A stretch of 64,000 nucleotides of DNA, from the NCBI RefSeq assembly GCF_049554935.1, contig NZ_CP186926.1:1088001-1152000 (forward strand), written 5' to 3'. A model generated the notes under the pieces. It saw only the letters and a program-made list of their open reading frames with translations. It ran no database searches and was not told where the DNA came from. Every line of letters starts with the position of its first letter. The stretch's first letter is position 1. Of this stretch, positions 40,781 through 51,897 are shown piece by piece. This stretch comes from Methanocaldococcus indicus (GTDB lineage: Archaea; AGJL01; Methanococci; Methanococcales; Methanocaldococcaceae). The translations under genes and the position numbers were made by a program.

Positions 40781-41480
40781 ATGCTAACCACACTTAAAGA
40801 ATTACTCGTTAATGGTTTAAATACTTTAGGTATAGCCAATTCGGATAACTTGGTAGATTACTGCTTGGTTAGAACTTTAACCGAGATAAAGACAATTAAA
40901 GCAATATCTGGAGAGATTTTAGAAATTCATCGAACAACCATAATCAAAAAACTTCAAAAGCTATCGGAAATTGAGAACTGCTTTTATACTCATCTACTAA
41001 ACCTTCCCAACATTTTAAATAATCGTAAATTTAAATTTTCAATAATAATTGATTCAACCTTATTGAGAAGATATAGTAAAAATGTATTTGTTTGGCAGTT
41101 CTATTAGATACAATTACGTAGAAAATCATAAAAAATTATATCAAGAACAAATAAACTGCTGTATTTTTAATAAAAAAAAGGATTATACGATATACACCAC
41201 AATAAAACCAAGGAATATTAAATCGACTGATGTATATTTAAGAATTATAGAATCAATATCTAAAATTATTAAGAAAACGGTCGTTGGTGATGGTTTTGTA
41301 ACAATAAAGAAAATTTTAAGGAGATGTAATGAATTGGGAATCAATTATATTGGTAGAATCAGAAAAAACATAAAAATTGAAGTTTTCGGTAAAGATGTTA
41401 AAATAGAAGATATGTTTAAAAAGGACTTCAACGAAAATAAAGCTAAATTTTGTGATTTTCTTTACATAAATTATTTATAA
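40781..41480 (+). pseudogene. Frameshifted, truncated DDE transposase (IS701/IS4-like)
   Basis: Two overlapping frames; IIIDSTLL (first Asp), VVGDG (second Asp), NYIGRIRKN; no C-terminal Glu region. Confidence 0.7.
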
Positions 41481-41671
41481 TACCTAAAATAAAGTTATAT
41501 AACGTTACTGTATCATACTTCCTATATCTTCTATTGTATCTTTTCCAGTATCCGGGTCTTTTTTTGCATTTTTCTTCACTCATATTTTTTATTACTTCAT
41601 TATACATTTTTATGTTTTTTCGACAACCTTACACATATAGAAATTATTTTTTGTTATTTTTTGGTGAGAGT

Positions 41672-42604
41672 ATGAAAGTTGGAATTACAGCAATAGTTCC
41701 ACCTGAGATTATTTACGCAACAAATCATACACCTTTAGATTTAAACAACTTTGTTCCACAATCTAATATAACTCCAAAAAATAAACTATGTGCCTGGACT
41801 GCTACATGGAGGGACTTAATTTTAGAGGATAAAATTAAAATTGATAAATTAATTGTTGTTGCAGGTGGAGATTGCCAAAATTCCCTTGTTGATGCTGAAA
41901 AGATAGAATTAAAGAAAAAAATTCCAACACATTATTTCTTTTATCAATTTGGAGATAAAAAGCACTTTGAAAATGAAATAAAAAAACTTATTAATTTTTT
42001 AGGAGGAGATGTTGATAAAGATATTTTAAGAGAAGTTTACAAAATAAAGAAACTTGTAAAAAAAGTCGATGAATTATGCTACAAAGACAAAATAAATGGG
42101 AAAGATGCGTTTTATACTATAATCTCTGCAAGCGATTTAAAAGGAAATCCAGACGTATATAAAAAAGAAATCAATAATTTATTAAACAAAGATGAAAATG
42201 TCGAATATAGTCATAGAATTGCTATAATAGGAATTCCTCCAATTTTTATAGATTTTTATGAATATTTAAATGAAATAAATGTACATTGTGTTTATAATGA
42301 GCTACCTTATGAGTTTATAAGAATGGGAGGATATTCAATAAAGAGTATTGTAGATACATATTCAACATACACATTTGCTAACCATATAAATAAAAGGATA
42401 AAGATTATAAAGAGAGAGCTAAAAAAAAGAAAGGTCGATGGAGTAATTCATTATACCCAAATGTGTTGCCATCATAAATTGGAAGATGAAATTCTCAGAG
42501 AATTTATTGATTATCCCATGCTAACAATAGAGGGGGATATTCCTCAAAAAACACCTGAACAAACAAAGTTAAGGATAGAAGCATTTATAGAATTGTTGGG
42601 ATAG
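41672..42604 (+). CDS. 2-hydroxyacyl-CoA dehydratase (HgdB/FldB D-component)-like Fe-S protein
   Basis: PPEII, KLCAW, GDC, DGVIHYTQMCC, PMLTIEGD...QTKLRIEAFIE; ATG at 41672 follows GGTGAG. Confidence 0.85.
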   Translation: MKVGITAIVPPEIIYATNHTPLDLNNFVPQSNITPKNKLCAWTATWRDLILEDKIKIDKLIVVAGGDCQNSLVDAEKIELKKKIPTHYFFYQFGDKKHFENEIKKLINFLGGDVDKDILREVYKIKKLVKKVDELCYKDKINGKDAFYTIISASDLKGNPDVYKKEINNLLNKDENVEYSHRIAIIGIPPIFIDFYEYLNEINVHCVYNELPYEFIRMGGYSIKSIVDTYSTYTFANHINKRIKIIKRELKKRKVDGVIHYTQMCCHHKLEDEILREFIDYPMLTIEGDIPQKTPEQTKLRIEAFIELLG

Positions 42605-42606
42605 CC

Positions 42607-43287
42607 ATGATAGGTATTGATGTTGGTTCAACAAACATAAAAATCGTAGACGGGAAGAGTTTTAAAAAATATCCAATAATTAAATTAAATGAAATATTAG
42701 AAAAATATAATAATGAAGAATCTTTTGCGACTGGATATTTTAGAAAGAGATTTAAAAATTACATAACTGAAATTACTGCTGCTATATATGGAATTGATAA
42801 AGATGTTGAAGTTATAATCGATATTGGGGGACAAGATACAAAGATAATAAACACAAAAACATTAGAGTTTATAATGAATGATAAATGTGGAGCAGGGACT
42901 GGATTATTTTTACAAACTATAGCAATGTATTTAAATGTTCCTATCGAAGATTTTGGAAAATATTATTCAAAAAATCCTCTAAACTTGAATAATACTTGTG
43001 CTGTTTTTTCAATTTCAGAAATAATTAACTACCTCGTGAGTGGCTATACTATTAAAGATATTATAGCATCTGTAAATTACACTATAGCAAAGAAAATAGC
43101 TAATATTAATCCCTATGAATGTGAAACTCTTACTCTAATTGGTGGAGTTGCAGAAAATAAAGCATTTGTGAGATATTTTAAAGAAATTACTGAGAAAGAA
43201 GTTTATGTTCCTAAAAATCCGCAATTTATAAATGCAATAGGGGCGAGAAAATATGGAATTAAATACTCAACAAAAAATCATCTTTGA
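42607..43287 (+). CDS. Acyl-CoA dehydratase activase (HgdC/BadF-type ASKHA ATPase, Fe-S)
   Basis: GIDVGST, ATGY, DIGGQDTK, NDKCGAGTG, CAVF, GGVA.N. Confidence 0.92.
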   Translation: MIGIDVGSTNIKIVDGKSFKKYPIIKLNEILEKYNNEESFATGYFRKRFKNYITEITAAIYGIDKDVEVIIDIGGQDTKIINTKTLEFIMNDKCGAGTGLFLQTIAMYLNVPIEDFGKYYSKNPLNLNNTCAVFSISEIINYLVSGYTIKDIIASVNYTIAKKIANINPYECETLTLIGGVAENKAFVRYFKEITEKEVYVPKNPQFINAIGARKYGIKYSTKNHL

Positions 43288-43828
43288 AATTTACGATTTA
43301 TACAAAAAATTTGAATTAATTGAAAGTAATAACAAATGTAAAAAGCTATCTAAAAGAATAGAAAAAATTAAAAATGGAATTGTAGTTAAAGATATTTATG
43401 ATGTTAATTATGTTGATAGAGTTCAGGAGATTTTATTAAATTACAGAGAAATTTGGGGTTTTATTTATAAATCATCAATAAAACAGTGGATTGCAACATC
43501 TAAAACTATAAATGTAGCTGGAATTTTTTATAAGGATGATTTAATTGGAGTTATGGTTTATGGAGAGAGACCAAATTATTTGAAAATTAATTACATTGCA
43601 GTAGATAAAAAATTTAAAGATAAATCTCTTGGAGGATATTTTATTCAATTTTTAGAGAAAAAAGCTAAAAAATTAAAAAAGAAAAAAATATATGCAGAAG
43701 TTCCAAAAATAAATGAGAATGGACTAAGATTTTTTATAAAAAATAGATTTGTAATTGAAGGAATTTTAAAAAATCATACAAGAAGGGACAAAGATTTAGT
43801 TTTAATGGCTAAATATTTAGAGGGATAA
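43253..43828 (+). CDS. GNAT family acetyltransferase
   Basis: IAVDKKFKDKSLG (motif A-like), N..GLRFF.K.RF..EG.L (motif B). Confidence 0.8.
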   Translation: MELNTQQKIIFEIYDLYKKFELIESNNKCKKLSKRIEKIKNGIVVKDIYDVNYVDRVQEILLNYREIWGFIYKSSIKQWIATSKTINVAGIFYKDDLIGVMVYGERPNYLKINYIAVDKKFKDKSLGGYFIQFLEKKAKKLKKKKIYAEVPKINENGLRFFIKNRFVIEGILKNHTRRDKDLVLMAKYLEG

Positions 43829-43829
43829 A

Positions 43830-44756
43830 ATGGTGGAATTTTTTGCATCGTTGACCATTTCTCCAGGACAAATTAGAAAAATGGTTGAACTTTTAAAGAA
43901 ACACGAACCAAAAAAATGGGCTTTTGAAAATGTGATTTTTACACCGATAGTTTCATCAGAAGGGACTATAAAAGAAATTAAAAATTTAAAAAGAAAATAT
44001 AAAACAACTATTATGTTTGATAGTGGTGGTTATTATGTTCAACAGGGAAAGTTTGAAATATATCAACTGTTTTCCTTTTTAAGGGAATTTTATGAAAACA
44101 ATAAATGGGGAGATTGGTATGTTCTACCAGATTCTCCACCAGTGTCATCTGATAGTATAAATATTGCTTGGGGAAAAGTCCATGAGACAGTTTATTTTGC
44201 AAAGAGTTTTGCAGAAGAATTTAATGGAAAAATAGAGAAAAAATTTGTTCCTGTTGTTCAGGGCATTAATGAAGAACAAATCTATTATTGTATCAAAAAT
44301 TATGCTGATTTGAATGTTAAAAGAATAGGTTTTGGAAGTTTTGGAACTTGTGGAAAGAATAATCAGATTAATCGACTAACAAAAGAAAGTTTAGAAAACT
44401 TAAAATATTTGTCTATGTTAGCAAGAGATTATGGATTTGAGTTACATGCCTTTGGTATTGGTGGAGGAAGTTCTGTAAATAAAATTAAAGACTATGTTGA
44501 TAGTTTTGATAGTAGTGGTTGGGATAAAGCTGGAGGATTTGGAGACATATTTTTTCCAGGTTCGAGAACTATTAACATAACTGGAAAATCTGGAAGAATA
44601 TCTTCAAAAAATTACATAGGTTATGAAGATATGATTGAAAATCTTAGAAATGGGCATAGGTGTTATTTTTGTAAAAATATTGCCAATCTAAAAAAATATA
44701 AGATATATCGGTCATTACATAATATAATAGTGCTTTATGAAATGGTGAAAGAATGA
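43830..44756 (+). CDS. tRNA-guanine transglycosylase-like protein (DpdA-like, probable DNA base-exchange enzyme)
   Basis: MFDSGGY, VLPD, VPVVQG, LHAFG, DSFDSS and Zn site HxCxxC...LHN; lacks arcTGT C-terminal/PUA domains. Confidence 0.8.
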   Translation: MVEFFASLTISPGQIRKMVELLKKHEPKKWAFENVIFTPIVSSEGTIKEIKNLKRKYKTTIMFDSGGYYVQQGKFEIYQLFSFLREFYENNKWGDWYVLPDSPPVSSDSINIAWGKVHETVYFAKSFAEEFNGKIEKKFVPVVQGINEEQIYYCIKNYADLNVKRIGFGSFGTCGKNNQINRLTKESLENLKYLSMLARDYGFELHAFGIGGGSSVNKIKDYVDSFDSSGWDKAGGFGDIFFPGSRTINITGKSGRISSKNYIGYEDMIENLRNGHRCYFCKNIANLKKYKIYRSLHNIIVLYEMVKE

Positions 44757-45493
44757 GTAGGGGATATCACATTCAACATAATGCAAAACCATCAATTATT
44801 AGAGAATTTATTGAATACAGTCCAAATGCTAAAAAATCAGAACTTAAAGAAGTGTTTTTAAATATAAAACCCAGCATTATAGATGATAATTATACAATTA
44901 TGAATAAACTTATTAATAGAGAAGATAAAAATGAGATTGAAAACCTTTTGAAAATGGATGAGGTAATATTTAATAATTATCTTCATTATAAGCTCTATTC
45001 ATCATCTTTACCAATTGGATGGTCATATAGAAGTGTAATTCATATATTATTTGAAGAATATAAGGATAAAAAAATAAATTACAACGATATTGAACAAAAA
45101 GTTAAAGATAAAGCATTTAATGAAGGTTTGGGAAGTATATCATTTAGTAGCAATAGTGTTCGTGGAGCAATTAATTTTATTAAATCTTTATACCCTTCTC
45201 CAATAGATGAAAATAACATATTCAACCTCAGAGATTATTGTCAACCACATCTCTTATTATGGGGAGTGGATTATCTTTATAAAAAACAATGGGGAGAGGA
45301 ATATGGTTCATTAATGCTTTTGGATAGTGAAAAAATTGAAGAACTTTGTAAATTTTGTTTAATTGATGAAGATGTGTTGGACAATCATTTAAAGGAACTT
45401 GGATTTATGTATGATTTTGTGGAAATATCGATAAAGGCATTTGGGAAGTATATAAGATTAAAAAGAGCTTGGAGTTTTAATGATATCTTATAA
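44753..45493 (+). CDS. Hypothetical protein, possibly BrxA-like winged-helix component
   Basis: ATGA overlap with the upstream gene; no catalytic motif recognised; call is positional. Confidence 0.45.
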   Translation: MSRGYHIQHNAKPSIIREFIEYSPNAKKSELKEVFLNIKPSIIDDNYTIMNKLINREDKNEIENLLKMDEVIFNNYLHYKLYSSSLPIGWSYRSVIHILFEEYKDKKINYNDIEQKVKDKAFNEGLGSISFSSNSVRGAINFIKSLYPSPIDENNIFNLRDYCQPHLLLWGVDYLYKKQWGEEYGSLMLLDSEKIEELCKFCLIDEDVLDNHLKELGFMYDFVEISIKAFGKYIRLKRAWSFNDIL

Positions 45494-45505
45494 AAGGGGA
45501 AAATA

Positions 45506-46015
45506 ATGGATTATATTGTACTAATAAACTATATCAAAAATAATTATTCTTTTAATTGGCTAACAAATAGTCAGAAAAATGCGTATAATATATTAAAAGA
45601 GTATCTTATTTATGATGATGTTATTAATCTTTATGGAAAAAGAGGAGTAGGGAAAACATTTTTAGGATGGGTATTTGCAAAAAATAACAACTTTATATAT
45701 TTTGAAAATGAAGATGCATTTAGAAATTATAAAGTAAAGACAAAAATAAATGCAATTATTGATAATGGCTCATTGAAGGATGGAAGGGAGATTAGAAGGA
45801 TGGTCTCCTTAAAAACCAATAAAGTAATTTACATTTCAAGAAAGAAAATTTTAGATTATGGTATAGAGTTAAAGTTAGATTTAAATGATGTAGAACATGT
45901 TTTAAATAATCTATCTCCAATTATTGGAGAAAATATAAATACTAACATTCAAAATTTGAAAATAAATGATATCGATTTATGGAACATTTTTAAGGGGAGG
46001 GTATATGAATATTAG
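45506..46015 (+). CDS. Small P-loop NTPase (BrxF/BrxB-like)
   Basis: Walker A GKRGVGKT, Walker B-like AIIDN; 169 aa; precedes the large ATPase. Confidence 0.6.
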   Translation: MDYIVLINYIKNNYSFNWLTNSQKNAYNILKEYLIYDDVINLYGKRGVGKTFLGWVFAKNNNFIYFENEDAFRNYKVKTKINAIIDNGSLKDGREIRRMVSLKTNKVIYISRKKILDYGIELKLDLNDVEHVLNNLSPIIGENINTNIQNLKINDIDLWNIFKGRVYEY

Positions 46016-49000
46016 TGTATTAGAATTTATAATAAATAAAAGTCCAGTAGTAGATACACAATCAGCCGAAAATTTAATAAATGAACCAGATTCAGTTGCA
46101 GATAAGTATGAAAATCATTTAAAAACCTATATAAAAGTTGATAATGAAGAATTTGATAAGCGATTTGTGAGAGAAATTAAAAAAGGAAAAACTGTAAAAG
46201 GTTATATTTCCGCTCCTTTTGGTTATGGAAAGACAAGTAAAGCATTAAGTTTATGGGAATATTGTAAAAAGAATAACATCTTTTCCATCCCTCCATTTAA
46301 ATTTGATGGAAAGCTTGATACAATAATGGACGCAGTTTATGGATGGACTAGATATGTTTATAAATACAAATATCCTGAATATGTGGACAAAATTGAAAAA
46401 ATTTATAGAAAATATAAAACACTAAGTATAGAAAAAGAAATAGATGAACTGGCAAAAAAAGAACACTTAACGAGAGATGAAGCAAAAAGAATAATTAATA
46501 ATTTCATAGAAAAAGGTAAACTAATTATATCAATGACACCAAAGGACTTGATGAATTTTTTAAAAGAGATGAATGAGATTATAAAAAAACATTTTGATGG
46601 ATTGGCAATTTTTGTAGATGAAGTGCAAGGAATAAAAAATATGGAAACTATTAATAATTTAAGAAACTTTATTTTCGAACTTAGTATTAACAATATAGGA
46701 TTAGGTATTTTATTCATAATTCCTGATTATCAAGAAGAGGACTTAAATATAAGAGCAGGAGATTTAATTGACAGATTACGAAAAGATGGATTTTACTTAA
46801 ATTTAGTAAATATATACAATGTAGATTTTGCAGAAAAATTATGGAAAAAATATGGAGAACTTTTACAATTTAATCCTTATGATATTATAACAAAGGACTG
46901 TTTAAGAAGTATTGGAGAAATATCTTCAAGAGATGATTTAGGAAAAGGTCCAAGAACTGTCATAGGGGCATTTAAATGTGCTTGTATGAAATATAAAGAA
47001 AAATTTGAGCCATACAATGTGTTTGATTTTGTTAATGATATTTTAAATGGTAAAATCGCATACATACAACAAAAATATTTAGATGCTTTAAATGAGGGGC
47101 TATCATTGAAGAAAGTTAATTCCGAAGAAAAAAGAAATGTTATTAAATTATTAGGGGCATTCCCGAGAGGAATAAGTGAAGAAATGATAAAAAAGTATGG
47201 CTTATATGATGAGTATGAAGAACTATCAGATGCTTATTATGGAACTGAGATTGTTTATGCACTTGAGGGATATACTCTAAGAGGATTATTAGACGAAACA
47301 CCAGATGGCTATGTCGAACAGCATATAAGGAAATTTAGAAGTGTATTTGATGAATCTTGGGAGGACGAGATGATTAATGCTTTTATAAATTATATATTAC
47401 CTGAAATTTTCCCAAAGAAAAAAGGATCTCAGATTGTAGGGTGGAGATTTGATAAAAAATACCCAATAAGTAATGGATATTATCACCAACTAACTGGGAC
47501 ATTTAATCCAAAATATCCTTTTAGAATTGTTGGGATATATTCTTTGAGGAAAGAACTTAAAGAAAAAGAAATGACGCTTATTAAAAATTTGGTTAATAAT
47601 GAGTCACCAGATGTTGAATTTAAATTTATATTAGATAAAAACATAGAAAATAACGATTTGATAATTAACTATAAAAATGGAGAAGTTATCTTTAAATTTG
47701 ATGTTTTAAAGAAAGTTGGAGAAGATAAATTACCTGGAGATTTGAAAAAACTTCAACAATATGTTAAACCACAAGAAGTTACGCCAATGTTTATGTTATG
47801 TCTTTTAGATTACTTTGACAAAATAAAAGAAAAAGAAGATGAATATGCAAAGTATGGGGGTGAAATTAATGCATTAAGGTCTATTCTTGTAAGATATTTA
47901 AAAAGATTTTTGTTTTCTGATGAGTTGGCAGAAAAATACGAGTTAAGGAAAAGACAAGAAAAAATAGTCGAAGAAATATTTAATAGAATTTGTGAATATA
48001 AATTTAAAGATTATAGAACATTAATTCATTCTCCAAACTGGCATAGAGATTTAGAGAGATATAGAATTTTATTGGAATCACTTTCAATTTCAAAAAGAAG
48101 GGGTGAAGAATTTGAAACTACTAAAAAAGAACTAGTTTCTAAATTGACTGGAAGTAAGAATCCAAGTGTTGCAGGATTCGATGATGAATGTAAAAATGGA
48201 AAATGGAAGGACTTGATATATTTGGAATATTGGGGTAAAGGAGAAAAAATTAAGGTTAAATTAAAAAAGCATCAACTTGAAGAAAGGATATTAAAAGAAT
48301 TCATTGAAAAATGGACACAACCAATAAGTATTGATGTAATAATTAATTATGGAATTAATTTGGGATACATTCCAGAAGAAGTCGAAGAAATTTTAAAAAT
48401 CCTTGAAAGTAGGAAATACATTGAAATTGATAAAGGATATATATTCAAACTTGAGGAGATAACAAACACTGATGTTTTAAATAAATTTGATGAAATTGAA
48501 AAACTTGCGAAGAAAGTTGCCAATCTTTATAAAAAATATGGAAAAGATATCCCAAACATCCCCATAAAATTATCTAAAAAAGATGAAATTAAGAACCAAA
48601 ATGATTCTGATTTATTATACAAAGAATTAGAACTTTTGGAAAGTTGGGAAAAAACATTAAAAGGATATCATAAGATGATTAAAAATGAAATAGATAAAAA
48701 TAAGGAAGAACTACTAAATGAAATCATAAAAACAAGGGAAAAAACAGAAGGACTAAAAAAGAAAATAGATGACATAAAAGAGGATATTATAAAGACCCAT
48801 TATTCATTAGGGGGAATTGTTAAGCATTTAGAAGAACAAATAAAGATAACAAAAAAGAAATGTAATAAGATATCGAGAGATTTATTGGAATTGAGAGAAA
48901 AAATAAACTCTTCAAGAGATATTGAAACTCTTGCCGAGATTTTAAATATTGCAAATAAAGAAATGGAACGTTTAAGAAAAGAACATACTGACATTAATGA

Positions 49001-49841
49001 AAAATATAATAAATTTAAATCTTGGTTAGCAATTCTTAGAAAATTAGAAGAATTACATGAAAAAATAGATTCCTATAAGGATTATATTGATATTGATGAA
49101 GAATATGAAAGATTTAACGAACTAATAGACGAAATAATAACTAACTTTGCAAGAGATGGGTGGGATTATCTAAACATGGATAAGGACGTTGAAAAAGATA
49201 TAGAATTAATAGAAAAAGACATAAAGAAAAAAGAAAGTAATTTAAGAAACGAATTTAATAAGATTCAAGATGAAATAAAAACAAAAATGGTTATCTTATC
49301 TCAAACACTAAAATCGTTAGATGTTTCTCCGTATTCATACAGAGAAGCATTTAGTATTGAAGATAGAGAGACAGCATACCAAAATCTTGTAAGAAATGTG
49401 AGGTTGTATCTCCAAGAAATTTTAAACAAGTTACATGACTATATTATATCATTAAAAACTGAAGTAGAGGTTAAATTGGGTAATAATGAAAATTATATAA
49501 CTATACTAAAGGAAATAGAAGATAAATTGGACAATATAAATATAGAAATTATAGAAAAAAATAATTTAATAACTGCTGTTGAAGAAATAAAATCAAATAT
49601 ACTTGATATATGGGAAGAAATAGAGAAGACTAGAAAAGAAATAAAAAGAGAAATTATTGAAAAAAATAAATCTGGTAAGTCAGAAGAAGAAATAAAAATA
49701 ATAGAATTATTAAACAAATATGGTGAAATTTCCATTAAAGAACTTACAAAACATTTAAACATGCCTATCGAGGGGACGTTAAAATGTCTATTGAATATGG
49801 AGAATATAGAAATAATTGTAAGGAAAAGATGGAAAAAATAA
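46005..49841 (+). CDS. Large P-loop ATPase with C-terminal coiled coil (BrxC/PglY-like)
   Basis: Walker A APFGYGKT, Walker B IFVDE, DRL arginine-finger-like, GPR sensor-like; long coiled coil; ATG at 46005 follows GGGGAGG. Confidence 0.7.
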   Translation: MNISVLEFIINKSPVVDTQSAENLINEPDSVADKYENHLKTYIKVDNEEFDKRFVREIKKGKTVKGYISAPFGYGKTSKALSLWEYCKKNNIFSIPPFKFDGKLDTIMDAVYGWTRYVYKYKYPEYVDKIEKIYRKYKTLSIEKEIDELAKKEHLTRDEAKRIINNFIEKGKLIISMTPKDLMNFLKEMNEIIKKHFDGLAIFVDEVQGIKNMETINNLRNFIFELSINNIGLGILFIIPDYQEEDLNIRAGDLIDRLRKDGFYLNLVNIYNVDFAEKLWKKYGELLQFNPYDIITKDCLRSIGEISSRDDLGKGPRTVIGAFKCACMKYKEKFEPYNVFDFVNDILNGKIAYIQQKYLDALNEGLSLKKVNSEEKRNVIKLLGAFPRGISEEMIKKYGLYDEYEELSDAYYGTEIVYALEGYTLRGLLDETPDGYVEQHIRKFRSVFDESWEDEMINAFINYILPEIFPKKKGSQIVGWRFDKKYPISNGYYHQLTGTFNPKYPFRIVGIYSLRKELKEKEMTLIKNLVNNESPDVEFKFILDKNIENNDLIINYKNGEVIFKFDVLKKVGEDKLPGDLKKLQQYVKPQEVTPMFMLCLLDYFDKIKEKEDEYAKYGGEINALRSILVRYLKRFLFSDELAEKYELRKRQEKIVEEIFNRICEYKFKDYRTLIHSPNWHRDLERYRILLESLSISKRRGEEFETTKKELVSKLTGSKNPSVAGFDDECKNGKWKDLIYLEYWGKGEKIKVKLKKHQLEERILKEFIEKWTQPISIDVIINYGINLGYIPEEVEEILKILESRKYIEIDKGYIFKLEEITNTDVLNKFDEIEKLAKKVANLYKKYGKDIPNIPIKLSKKDEIKNQNDSDLLYKELELLESWEKTLKGYHKMIKNEIDKNKEELLNEIIKTREKTEGLKKKIDDIKEDIIKTHYSLGGIVKHLEEQIKITKKKCNKISRDLLELREKINSSRDIETLAEILNIANKEMERLRKEHTDINEKYNKFKSWLAILRKLEELHEKIDSYKDYIDIDEEYERFNELIDEIITNFARDGWDYLNMDKDVEKDIELIEKDIKKKESNLRNEFNKIQDEIKTKMVILSQTLKSLDVSPYSYREAFSIEDRETAYQNLVRNVRLYLQEILNKLHDYIISLKTEVEVKLGNNENYITILKEIEDKLDNINIEIIEKNNLITAVEEIKSNILDIWEEIEKTRKEIKREIIEKNKSGKSEEEIKIIELLNKYGEISIKELTKHLNMPIEGTLKCLLNMENIEIIVRKRWKK

Positions 49842-50734
49842 AGACTCCATGTTACTTAAAAATAAAACATAAACTTTCACTTCTATTTTCTGATTTTGAA
49901 GACATCTCCTATAATGATTTCTGGTTAATGGTAGACAACCCAAATAAAAAACTTCCTCAGAAAAAATTTGTTATAACCGATAAATTTGATTATAGATTAC
50001 CTATTTATGAAATAAATCATAATCCTTTTACACCAGAATTAAACAAAATTATTAGTGAAAAATATCATCTAATTGAAAAATATGTTAAGACACAAAGAGA
50101 TATTAAAGATTATATCGTTGATTATGTTAATACCAAAACTCCAAAAACTGTTATTTTGTATCTTATTGATGGACTATCGTATTGGGACTATATAAATGCA
50201 AGCATAAAATATAATGTTGAACCAATATTTGTCAATGGAAAAACAACAACCGAAAATGGGCTTAAAAATATTGTTTATGGAAAAAATGGCATACCTATTG
50301 CAAAAGAACTTTATAAGTTTGGATATAAAGGCTACGGACAAACTTATTGGAATAGAAAAAATAAATTAACAGATATTTTGTTTAGATACATAAGTGAAAA
50401 GAACATTTTTTATTATGATGAAAACATACACGACATAATAGTTAAAAATAAACAATCAAAGAAATATATTCAAATTTATAAAATTGGATTAGATGATGAT
50501 GCACATAAGTTAAGAGAAGTTAGTAAAAAAAGTATAATTAATAAAATAAAAGAAATATTTGAAAATATAAACATCTTAAGAGATATTCTAAATCAAACTA
50601 ATCAGCCTTATCTTATAGTAATTACTGCTGACCATGGTATAAAGTGGGATTTTACAAAAAAATATAGAAAAGGTTCTCATGGAAACATTTCATTTGAGGA
50701 GTGTTTTGTGCCTTTAATTATAATTGAGGGGTAG
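49829..50734 (+). CDS. PglZ-like alkaline-phosphatase-superfamily protein (core domain only)
   Basis: LIDGL, KTTT, DDDAH, ITADHG, SHG.IS.EE..VP motifs in PglZ order. Confidence 0.82.
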   Translation: MEKIKTPCYLKIKHKLSLLFSDFEDISYNDFWLMVDNPNKKLPQKKFVITDKFDYRLPIYEINHNPFTPELNKIISEKYHLIEKYVKTQRDIKDYIVDYVNTKTPKTVILYLIDGLSYWDYINASIKYNVEPIFVNGKTTTENGLKNIVYGKNGIPIAKELYKFGYKGYGQTYWNRKNKLTDILFRYISEKNIFYYDENIHDIIVKNKQSKKYIQIYKIGLDDDAHKLREVSKKSIINKIKEIFENINILRDILNQTNQPYLIVITADHGIKWDFTKKYRKGSHGNISFEECFVPLIIIEG

Positions 50735-50736
50735 CT

Positions 50737-51897
50737 ATGTTATTTATTGGAAGAGAAAAACTAAAAGACAGATTAGGAGATGATGTGTATATAGATGCTT
50801 CAAAATCTCATGCAATTTTTATTTGTGGTAAAAGAGGTAGTGGAAAAAGTTATACTTTAGGTGTTTTAGTTGAAGAACTTCAAGAAAAATACTCCGAGTA
50901 TCTAAAAATTATTATCGACCCAATGGGGATATTTTGGACTATGGTAGAGCCAAATGAAGAACAGGAAGAAGAACTTTGGGATTGGGATTTATATCCAGAA
51001 AGATATCCTGTTAAGTTAATAGTCCCTGGGGAAATAGAGGAAAGATTTGACGAAGATGTTATAAAAGAAATGGAAAATAGGGGAGTAGAATTTAAAAAAC
51101 TTCTTTTGAATCCTTCTGATATCTCAGCAGAAGGATGGTGTGATTTATTCAATTTAAATATAAACGAAATTATGGGAATTGCTTTGTATAGGGCAATTGA
51201 TAATATTGAAAAAGATTTTTTCACAATAGATGATATTATTTATGAGGTTGAGATGGATACAAAATCAAAAGAATCTACAAAAGAAGCATTAATAAATCGT
51301 CTAAACATGGCAAAAAAGTGGGGAATTTTTTCAGATGAATACATTCCAATAGAAAATATTTTTGAAAAAAATTCAATAAATGTTATTGATTTAAGTGTTA
51401 TTGAAAGTGGAAGATATGGGTTAAGAGATTTGATTGTATCAATAATTGCAAAATACTTATTTAATCAACGATTGAAAGCAAGAAAAAAAGAAATGTTAAA
51501 TTTACAATCAAAAATGCCAAAAGTTTGGCTGTTTATTGACGAAGCACATAATTTTATTCCTTCTGGGAAATCAACATTATCAAAAGAAATTCTAATAAGA
51601 TGGGCAAAGGAAGGACGACAGCCTGGGTTAAATTTAGTTATAGCTACTCAACAACCATCAGCAATTGACAATGAAGTTTTAAGTCAATGTGATATAATCT
51701 TTGCTCATAAAGTGACTAATAGAGAAGATATAAATGCATTAAATAAGCTCAATCAAGAGTATATGGGAAAGGAACTAAAAGTATATATTAAAGATTTAAA
51801 TAAAGGAGAATGTGTTTTTATTGATGATGAAAAAGAATTCTTAAAAATTATAAAAATAAGAACAAGAAAAAGTAAACATGGAGGAGGAGAAAAGTAA
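50737..51897 (+). CDS. HerA/FtsK-family ATPase (DUF87)
   Basis: H..I.GKRGSGKSYT, IIDP.G, FIDEAHNF, EGR, ATQQP. Confidence 0.9.
   Translation: MLFIGREKLKDRLGDDVYIDASKSHAIFICGKRGSGKSYTLGVLVEELQEKYSEYLKIIIDPMGIFWTMVEPNEEQEEELWDWDLYPERYPVKLIVPGEIEERFDEDVIKEMENRGVEFKKLLLNPSDISAEGWCDLFNLNINEIMGIALYRAIDNIEKDFFTIDDIIYEVEMDTKSKESTKEALINRLNMAKKWGIFSDEYIPIENIFEKNSINVIDLSVIESGRYGLRDLIVSIIAKYLFNQRLKARKKEMLNLQSKMPKVWLFIDEAHNFIPSGKSTLSKEILIRWAKEGRQPGLNLVIATQQPSAIDNEVLSQCDIIFAHKVTNREDINALNKLNQEYMGKELKVYIKDLNKGECVFIDDEKEFLKIIKIRTRKSKHGGGEK

Follow-up and report, generated by a model that had tools for sequence, protein, structure and literature searches.

In the 64,000-nucleotide stretch of the Methanocaldococcus indicus chromosome analysed here (contig NZ_CP186926.1, positions 1,088,001 to 1,152,000; hereafter the window), a small gene of the tRNA-guanine transglycosylase (TGT) superfamily has been found inside a mobile, defence-type cassette, in which it is accompanied by a GNAT N-acetyltransferase and by two further proteins, p246 and p1291. 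We hold it moderately probable that the GNAT-TGT module is a portable device for writing a self-label into DNA, the mark itself probably being a 7-deazaguanine that may in addition be acylated. The DNA 7-deazaguanine systems described so far are the Dpd islands and those of phages; here a different TGT lineage is tied to an acetyltransferase, and since the TGT is hard-wired to this enzyme, the chemistry is probably not that of plain dPreQ0. The same four-gene putative writer has been observed in related loci with either BREX-like/HerA or Druantia effectors, which provides a handle on how both of these tell self from non-self, and the chemistry of the mark is directly testable by mass spectrometry on cultivable strains. 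That a TGT of this type acts on DNA has already been proposed in print, on computational grounds, with the description of the BREX-Related Capture (BRC) system (NAR 2026, PMC12839542).

A reduced, predicted base-exchange enzyme with a conserved core

43830..44756, forward strand: TGT-fold base-exchange enzyme, 308 amino acids (aa).

The frame is uninterrupted, the opposite strand is full of stops, and the translation contains the motifs MFDSGGY (D64), VLPDSP (D101), VVQG (Q144), HAFG (H206), DSFDSS (D224/D227) and HRCYFC...H (H276, C278, C281, H297). In an alignment of 43 family members with 22-84% identity to the query, D64, G67, D101, H206, G209, H276, C278 and H297 have been found invariant, and S65, G66, S225, D227 and C281 are conserved in at least 90% of the sequences. 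To judge from this conservation across 43 relatives, the motifs are the selected core of the family and not a product of chance. Residue 144 is Q in the window TGT and H in the family consensus, and the putative zinc site takes the form H276-x-C278-x-x-C281...H297, conserved at all four positions, in place of the canonical CxCxxC...H. D64 and D227 align with the DSGG and xFD motifs of solved enzymes. An earlier note on this DNA, made from the letters alone, had named these motifs in the 308-aa frame and described the catalytic residues as intact, and both statements agree with the alignment, in which D64 and D101 do not vary and D227 hardly does. The note had also placed the nucleophile in DSFDSS; this stands for D227, which has been aligned by hidden Markov model with the nucleophile motifs of DpdA (SIDS), arcTGT (LFDS) and T. 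maritima TGT (MFDS), but not for D224, which is not conserved.

The TGT fold itself has been observed in an AF2 model built on the alignment (pLDDT 93.1, pTM 0.91), for which Foldseek has returned arcTGT and Z. mobilis TGT at the top (E ~5e-10). A structural comparison by VIA-align against one chain per PDB cluster has given the following scores:

arcTGT chain: Z 24.1, 264 aligned residues, root-mean-square deviation 2.7, 19% identity
DpdA 7UI4 chain: Z 22.2, 283 aligned residues, root-mean-square deviation 3.5, ~18% identity
Bacterial TGT chain: Z 21.5
QTRT2 chain: Z 20.5
Cap10 chain: Z 16.7
Generic or unrelated TIM barrels: Z at most 16.3

Residues 1-308 of the model align with positions 33-318 of P. 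horikoshii arcTGT, a chain of 577 residues (Z 24.1-24.2), and because nothing beyond that range is covered, the tRNA-binding C-terminal domains are absent, just as the earlier note had said of the C-terminal/PUA domains. On this model the protein is a TGT-superfamily member reduced to the TIM barrel and the zinc subdomain, and the best explanation of its sequence is that it would be catalytically competent. It is the second superfamily paralogue of its host, as had been supposed, a separate housekeeping arcTGT being encoded elsewhere in the 1.44 Mb genome by a canonical 650-aa frame (G000:C1:706019-707014).

The placement relative to bacterial TGT, arcTGT and DpdA has been judged by profile and structure scores, since identities of only 14-19% make a tree against these enzymes unreliable. 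When solved structures are ranked by sequence profile, DpdA (7ui4, 1.2e-6) comes first, followed by arcTGT (3e-4), TGT (9e-4) and Cap10 (9ntn, 0.036); the best solved relative by this measure is therefore a DNA preQ0 insertase, in line with the earlier suggestion of an enzyme that acts on DNA. In DpdA, the acid/base has been assigned to Asp95 and the nucleophile to Asp256, with Asp130 and His181 holding the base; exchange was lost with alanine in place of the acid/base or the nucleophile, and the ATPase DpdB was required (PMC10164549). The equivalents in the window TGT are D64, D101, Q144 and D227, so that the three catalytic or binding aspartates are common to both enzymes, and at the His181 position the family consensus has His too. 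Like the window TGT, DpdA (PDB 7UI4) combines a TIM barrel and a zinc subdomain without tRNA-binding domains and is encoded in a defence island; it is reported to borrow host preQ0. arcTGT (PDB 1IQ8/1J2B) has the HxFG and LHN motifs in common with the window TGT but carries the C1/C2/PUA tRNA-binding domains that the latter lacks.

A conserved module with exchangeable effectors

The TGT gene sits in a tight same-strand operon of nine genes (41672-51897), in the order HGD-D-like Fe-S protein, activase, GNAT, TGT, p246, small NTPase, p1291, PglZ-like phosphatase and HerA. This is the context of a defence-type operon rather than of translation genes. A genome scan with a 12-sequence alignment has matched 122 stretches, 93 of them encoding relatives; the following counts refer to the best 80 loci, where partners have been called with profiles from the window proteins and with a GNAT profile derived from fusions:

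p246: 79/80 loci, directly downstream of TGT
p1291: 73/80 loci
GNAT: 69/80 loci (36 fused to TGT, 13 immediately upstream, 19 further along the operon, 1 elsewhere)
p169, the small NTPase: 47/80 loci, among them every one of the 41 full loci but no locus of the Druantia type
p316, the PglZ-like protein: 43/80 loci
HerA: 43/80 loci

Gene linkage between TGT, GNAT, p246 and p1291 is thus observed directly. In ten of the 11 loci that lack GNAT, the contig breaks off within 9 kb on the downstream side. The designation 'stand-alone' that the earlier note had given the TGT has consequently turned out to be misleading, as the acetyltransferase is fused to it in 36 of the related loci and found in the same operon in 32 more. 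Regarding overall architecture, 41 loci are full like that of the window, 15 are cut by a contig end, one is of another kind, and 23 consist of TGT-p246-p1291 only, a class that needs at least 9 kb of downstream sequence and in which locus L012 is misclassified, as an insert of four genes has moved HerA beyond the limits of the locus.

In 25 of the 80 loci the GNAT-TGT-p246-p1291 set has been found with Druantia genes instead of PglZ/HerA, the module being a neighbour of DruE (PADLOC E=0), DruL and DruF or lying in one line with them. Eighteen loci have DruE, DruL and DruF together, and the 41 full loci are free of all three. The association with Druantia (PADLOC types II/IV: DruE, DruF, DruL) is confined to bacterial relatives, and the window cassette is free of Druantia genes. 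In type II Druantia a methyltransferase, DruM, occupies the place equivalent to that of the module. A quick maximum-likelihood tree (IQ-TREE) built from 81 TGT domains groups the archaeal sequences in a single clade (SH-aLRT 99), and at least 5-7 switches of the effector label are counted on its supported branches. Repeated change of effector partner, as far as this tree of sequences reflects it, is how a modification module behaves, and it is the interchangeable pairing with PglZ/HerA or with DruE/F/L that argues for the TGT as a modification module rather than a third effector. A literature search for a link between Druantia and TGT has found no paper, and the link between Druantia and the module appears to be new.

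The mobility of the cassette has been observed by blastn against three other Methanocaldococcus loci, where homology extends only from 41657/41671 to 51897/51922, that is, exactly from the ATG of the HGD-D-like gene to the stop of HerA, and the flanks are unrelated. Among Methanococci, 5 of 40 genomes have the TGT gene, the window's own counted, and among Methanosarcinales 2 of 284. A word-indexed search has returned 318 TGT homologues, several of which are GNAT-TGT fusions, and phmmer against 1.84 billion representatives has found 166 TGT relatives at E<=1e-3. Viral contigs account for only two loci; one has the GNAT-TGT-p246-p1291 module and the other is truncated where its contig stops, so that nothing points to a phage version of this TGT that stands alone.

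Proposed function and alternatives

In the reaction that we propose, TGT, GNAT, p246 and p1291 would work together as a portable writer module. D227 would attack C1' of the target deoxyguanosine in double-stranded DNA, with D64 as general acid/base, and guanine would be swapped for an analogue by double displacement, as in the TGT relatives. The inserted base would most probably be a 7-deazaguanine from the precursor pool of host queuosine or archaeosine, and GNAT may acylate an amine of this base, either before or after insertion. Targeting to DNA and the requirement for ATP would be contributed by p246 and p1291, as by DpdB in Dpd. The resulting mark would allow the attached effector set, which in the window would comprise the small NTPase, the PglZ-like phosphatase/nuclease and the HerA translocase, to tell self from foreign DNA. 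Fold, conserved residues, gene linkage and cassette mobility are observed; action on DNA, the nature of the base, the task of GNAT and the logic of self-marking are what we infer.

The supply of such a base has been followed in the host genomes. Methanogens make preQ0, and in the window genome QueC and QueD/PTPS are present outside the cassette. Among the 29 host genomes tested, QueC has been found in 25. QueF is present in 23 of 30 hosts, namely in 23 of 27 bacterial and 0 of 3 archaeal ones, and to our knowledge methanogens lack QueF. The cassette itself contains none of QueC, QueD, QueE or FolE according to Pfam, in agreement with the earlier note, which had suggested that the enzyme borrows host preQ0 or uses a base made by the upstream genes. 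The first of these suggestions holds insofar as QueC and QueD are encoded by the host, but its strict form is weakened by the 4 of 29 hosts without QueC. As to the second, it is possible that the upstream HGD-D/activase pair supplies the base, a pair that is linked to the cassette only in archaea.

Several observations weigh against the proposal of a DNA mark made from preQ0. The four hosts that lack QueC are all Chloroflexota, one of them a complete isolate genome; the same four are also without QueF, so that 7-deazaguanine would have to be salvaged there, and a Vut_1/YhhQ-type transporter has been found in only two of them. All four nevertheless keep a canonical bacterial TGT. No DpdB (ParB-like), DpdC or DUF328 family has been detected by Pfam among the cassette proteins, and together with the QueC-less hosts and the obligatory GNAT, the missing DpdB and DpdC count against a simple preQ0 story. 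The proposed DNA-targeting role of p246 and p1291 rests on a statement in the BRC paper and on linkage; Pfam and hhalign have given no tie to DUF4007 or DUF6079. Structurally, the TGT model is as near to the tRNA enzymes as to DpdA, and a His replaces the first Cys of the zinc ligands. The Pfam scores for TGT (PF01702, 17.6 bits) and DpdA (PF23859, 17.3 bits) remain below the respective cut-offs of 26.3 and 27, and an NCBIfam search of the TGT has returned no family; many of its relatives carry a precomputed PF01702 match, the PADLOC TGT model matches weakly (0.021), and PHROG 887, 'queuine tRNA-ribosyltransferase', matches at 1e-5. Taken by themselves, the results would also be compatible with RNA or protein as the substrate.

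Among the other explanations, the one that survives best, though we regard it as unlikely, is that the TGT installs a base other than a 7-deazaguanine, such as a purine analogue made or activated by GNAT, or that GNAT acetylates DNA or protein in a manner unrelated to the inserted base. It would account for the 4 of 29 hosts without both QueC and QueF, for a cassette without que or folE genes, for the variation of position 144 between Q and H, and for the status of GNAT as an obligate partner, which no characterised 7-deazaguanine DNA system is reported to require. However, of the residues that bind the Watson-Crick edge of guanine or 7-deazaguanine, D101 does not vary and position 144 shows the conservative exchange Q/H, 25 of 29 hosts encode QueC, and the four QueC-less hosts, as they keep a canonical TGT, must import 7-deazaguanine anyway.

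Somewhat less probable is the assignment of the TGT-like protein to the effectors or sensors, in which it would flip out and excise, or covalently trap, guanine or modified guanine in invading DNA, leaving abasic sites or adducts to be processed by HerA and PglZ. Glycosylases directed against 7-deazaguanine-modified phage DNA are a proven form of defence, although the enzymes reported there are not TGT-like (bioRxiv 10.1101/2025.10.29.685425), and the TGT mechanism as published includes a covalent enzyme-nucleic acid intermediate. The swapping between PglZ/HerA and DruE/F/L sets, in contrast, fits a modification module better, and the fusion to GNAT has no obvious role in excision.

We consider it similarly doubtful, as a more specific form of the DNA-marking proposal, that the GNAT-TGT pair writes a hitherto undescribed DNA base, an N-acylated 7-aminomethyl-7-deazaguanine (acetyl-preQ1 or a related acyl form), as the portable self-label for two or more unrelated sets of effectors, PglZ/HerA and Druantia, in which case the archaeal HGD-D/activase pair might be a new kind of ATP-driven nitrile reductase that converts preQ0 to preQ1, or might have some other part in producing the base or the acyl donor. 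This would fit the distribution of HGD-D/activase (7/7 archaeal loci, 0/27 bacterial hosts), the opposite distribution of QueF (0/3 archaeal, 23/27 bacterial hosts) and the resemblance of GNAT to amine N-acetyltransferases. A literature search has returned nothing on acetylated preQ1.

That the TGT modifies a protein, possibly p246 or p1291, in the way the TGT-like Cap10 modifies the CBASS cyclase, appears very improbable: Cap10 does belong to the relatives (9ntn, E 0.036, Z 16.7), and the title of the 9ntn entry names a Cap10-CdnD complex with an NDG modification, but Cap10 is clearly more distant than TGT, DpdA and arcTGT (Z 16.7 vs 21.5-24.1), and no QueC-like Cap9 partner is found in the cassette. 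Just as little credence can be given to a second tRNA-guanine transglycosylase working on tRNA or other RNA, as suggested by a fold and catalytic residues like those of the tRNA enzymes and by arcTGT as the top structural match, given that the C1/C2/PUA tRNA-binding domains are absent, a full-length arcTGT is already in the genome, and the gene is patchy (5/40 and 2/284 genomes) and resides in a mobile cassette of defence type.

Further genes of the cassette and the BRC system

The genes that surround the TGT in the window, all on the forward strand, are the following:

41672..42604, forward strand: HGD-D-like Fe-S subunit of 310 aa when read from the ATG at 41672
42607..43287, forward strand: BcrAD/BadFG-family ATP-dependent activase ('archerase'), 226 aa; PF01869 90.8 bits, above cut-off
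43253..43828, forward strand: GNAT N-acetyltransferase, 191 aa; Pfam Acetyltransf_1 5e-7
44753..45493, forward strand: p246, partner of unassigned family; its start overlaps the TGT stop (ATGA)
45506..46015, forward strand: p169, small P-loop NTPase with weak AAA matches only
45966..49841, forward strand: p1291, giant P-loop ATPase whose C-terminal half is helical and which has a winged helix-turn-helix; alternative start at residue 14
49784..50734, forward strand: p316, PglZ-like alkaline-phosphatase-superfamily protein; AF2 pLDDT 88.4
50737..51897, forward strand: HerA/FtsK-type ATPase, 386 aa; Pfam DUF87 1.4e-13, PADLOC HerA 1.5e-28

The GNAT frame stops 1 nt ahead of the start codon of TGT, and the GNAT family profile matches generic amine N-acetyltransferases, best 3pp9 (5.9e-12). 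For p246, Pfam has given no family at E<=0.01 on 40 members; the PF13182 (DUF4007) model misses the p246 homologues at the loci and finds true members elsewhere in the same genomes, and an hhalign comparison with one true DUF4007 has reached a probability of 1.6%, which is not significant. The only lead from the Atlas is to DpdG (score 0.87). In p1291, Walker A (G86, G88, K89, T90) and Walker B (D218, E219) show no variation across 21 sequences. With the DUF6079 model of Pfam, nothing has come up at E<=1 among the p1291 homologues at the loci, although the model does recognise a genuine DUF6079 protein elsewhere in one of these genomes; an hhalign comparison with a single true DUF6079 has reached a probability of 11% over the Walker A region only, again not significant, the profile search against the PDB has returned coiled-coil noise only, and the Atlas has provided a lead to BrxC_BrxD (score 0.89).

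For p316, Foldseek places PorX first (4.3e-7), then MCR-1 and BcsG, with BREX PglZ (9zn5_B) at 1.3e-5; the invariant residues, which include the metal site, are D129, G130, L131, D237, H241, D283, H284 and H299. PADLOC PglZ matches only a bacterial p316 homologue (1.4e-5), and PglZ has not been detected by Pfam in p316 or its bacterial homologues. HerA (50737-51897) also matches mad8 of MADS in PADLOC over its full length (2.8e-24), and so does a bacterial homologue.

The BRC system has been described computationally in 45 taxa and comprises a short PglZ, DUF6079, a STAND NTPase, DUF4007, HerA, GNAT and TGT, the GNAT being occasionally fused to TGT and the pair being proposed to mark host DNA; a ParB-like or DUF328 component is not part of the published set (PMC12839542). 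Seven of the nine window genes match that set by architecture. A HerA/FtsK ATPase lies in the window operon together with GNAT and TGT, which are sometimes fused, and like the window TGT family, BRC is reported as sparse across archaeal and bacterial classes. The protein p246 is probably the tripartite 'DUF4007/BrxA-like' DNA-binding component of the published system, p169 probably its 'STAND NTPase/BrxB homologue' and p1291, a P-loop ATPase of fitting size and position, probably its 'DUF6079/BrxC-like' component. To judge from the sequences, the window cassette is a variant of BRC with an archaeal-specific Fe-S/activase add-on. The main text of the BRC paper makes no mention of HGD-D, BadF, activase, dehydratase or Druantia, whereas the archaeal loci here carry HGD-D and activase; and while that paper places GNAT/TGT in a subset of HerA-anchored loci, 25 of the 80 loci collected from the TGT side are without HerA or PglZ. 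A literature search has returned PMC12839542 as the only paper for BRC. In contrast to Dpd, the window cassette is without DpdB, DpdC and DpdD-K and has GNAT as partner.

The archaeal HGD-D/activase pair

HGD-D and activase have been found in all seven archaeal loci (the window, L011, L012, L096, L097, L013 and L102), at the 5' end of the operon in Methanococcales and at the 3' end after HerA in Methanosarcina, and a search for PF06050 in 27 bacterial host genomes has found none; this archaea-specific add-on appears to be new. The HGD-D-like frame is open up to a TTG at 41534, and its product scores 99.4 bits with PF06050 against a cut-off of 28.4. Its nearest PDB entry is DCCP, a protein with a double-cubane cluster (7yyl_C/6eno_A, E 8.6e-5), over the C-terminal 70 residues only. 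The activase matches HadI (4eht, 7e-30) and, over its full length, DCCP-R (7yyl_E, 3.4e-25). DCCP/DCCP-R and the 2-hydroxyacyl-CoA dehydratases with their activators belong to the same class of ATP-driven low-potential electron transfer as the upstream pair, the window HGD-D-like catalytic subunit differing in being short (310 aa) with three invariant Cys. [quoted passage not shown] The archaeal cassettes thus offer a rare, genetically defined context for the HAD/BCR/DCCP class, whose physiological substrates are largely unknown.

The HGD-D-like protein is 48-50% identical to the Methanosarcina cassette copies, vs 31% to the paralogue in its own genome, and in the Methanosarcina genome G069 the cassette copy is the only PF06050 gene. 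The housekeeping paralogue of the window genome (G000:C1:160663-162485) lies ~150 bp from QueC in convergent orientation; a functional link between the two has been considered and rejected, the adjacency being probably due to chance since it is not conserved in three relatives, where the distances amount to 13 kb, 26 kb and ~150 kb.

Minor observations on the loci

One Latescibacterota chromosome (OZ244028.1) carries two GNAT-TGT modules, one of the PglZ/HerA type and one of the Druantia type (L054 and L078), which suggests that the two may write or read different marks. In five Chloroflexota loci (L027, L036, L047, L048 and L049) a second p246-p1291 pair directly follows the first, as if two specificity/ATPase units were serving one GNAT-TGT.

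Just upstream of the window cassette, two short overlapping open reading frames of 108 and 132 aa (40781-41480, forward strand) have been noticed, the second with a weak DDE_Tnp_1 match (1.5e-4); from these sequences they look like insertion-sequence remnants at the left edge of the cassette. GC content does not distinguish the cassette, with 0.25-0.27 inside and 0.26-0.31 in the flanks.

In Methanosarcina, TGT and p246 are separated by a gap of ~500 nt without open frame (L013:10954-11460 and L102:8576-9139), with 17 stops in the reading frame tried in the L013 gap; in Methanococcales the two genes overlap. The insert of L012 (L012:11684-16028, Methanothermococcus sp. Ax23) adds four same-strand genes between p246 and the small NTPase, which encode three unassigned proteins of 749, 215 and 195 aa and a 290-aa Cas-like protein of the RAMP superfamily (PF03787, 2.9e-19).

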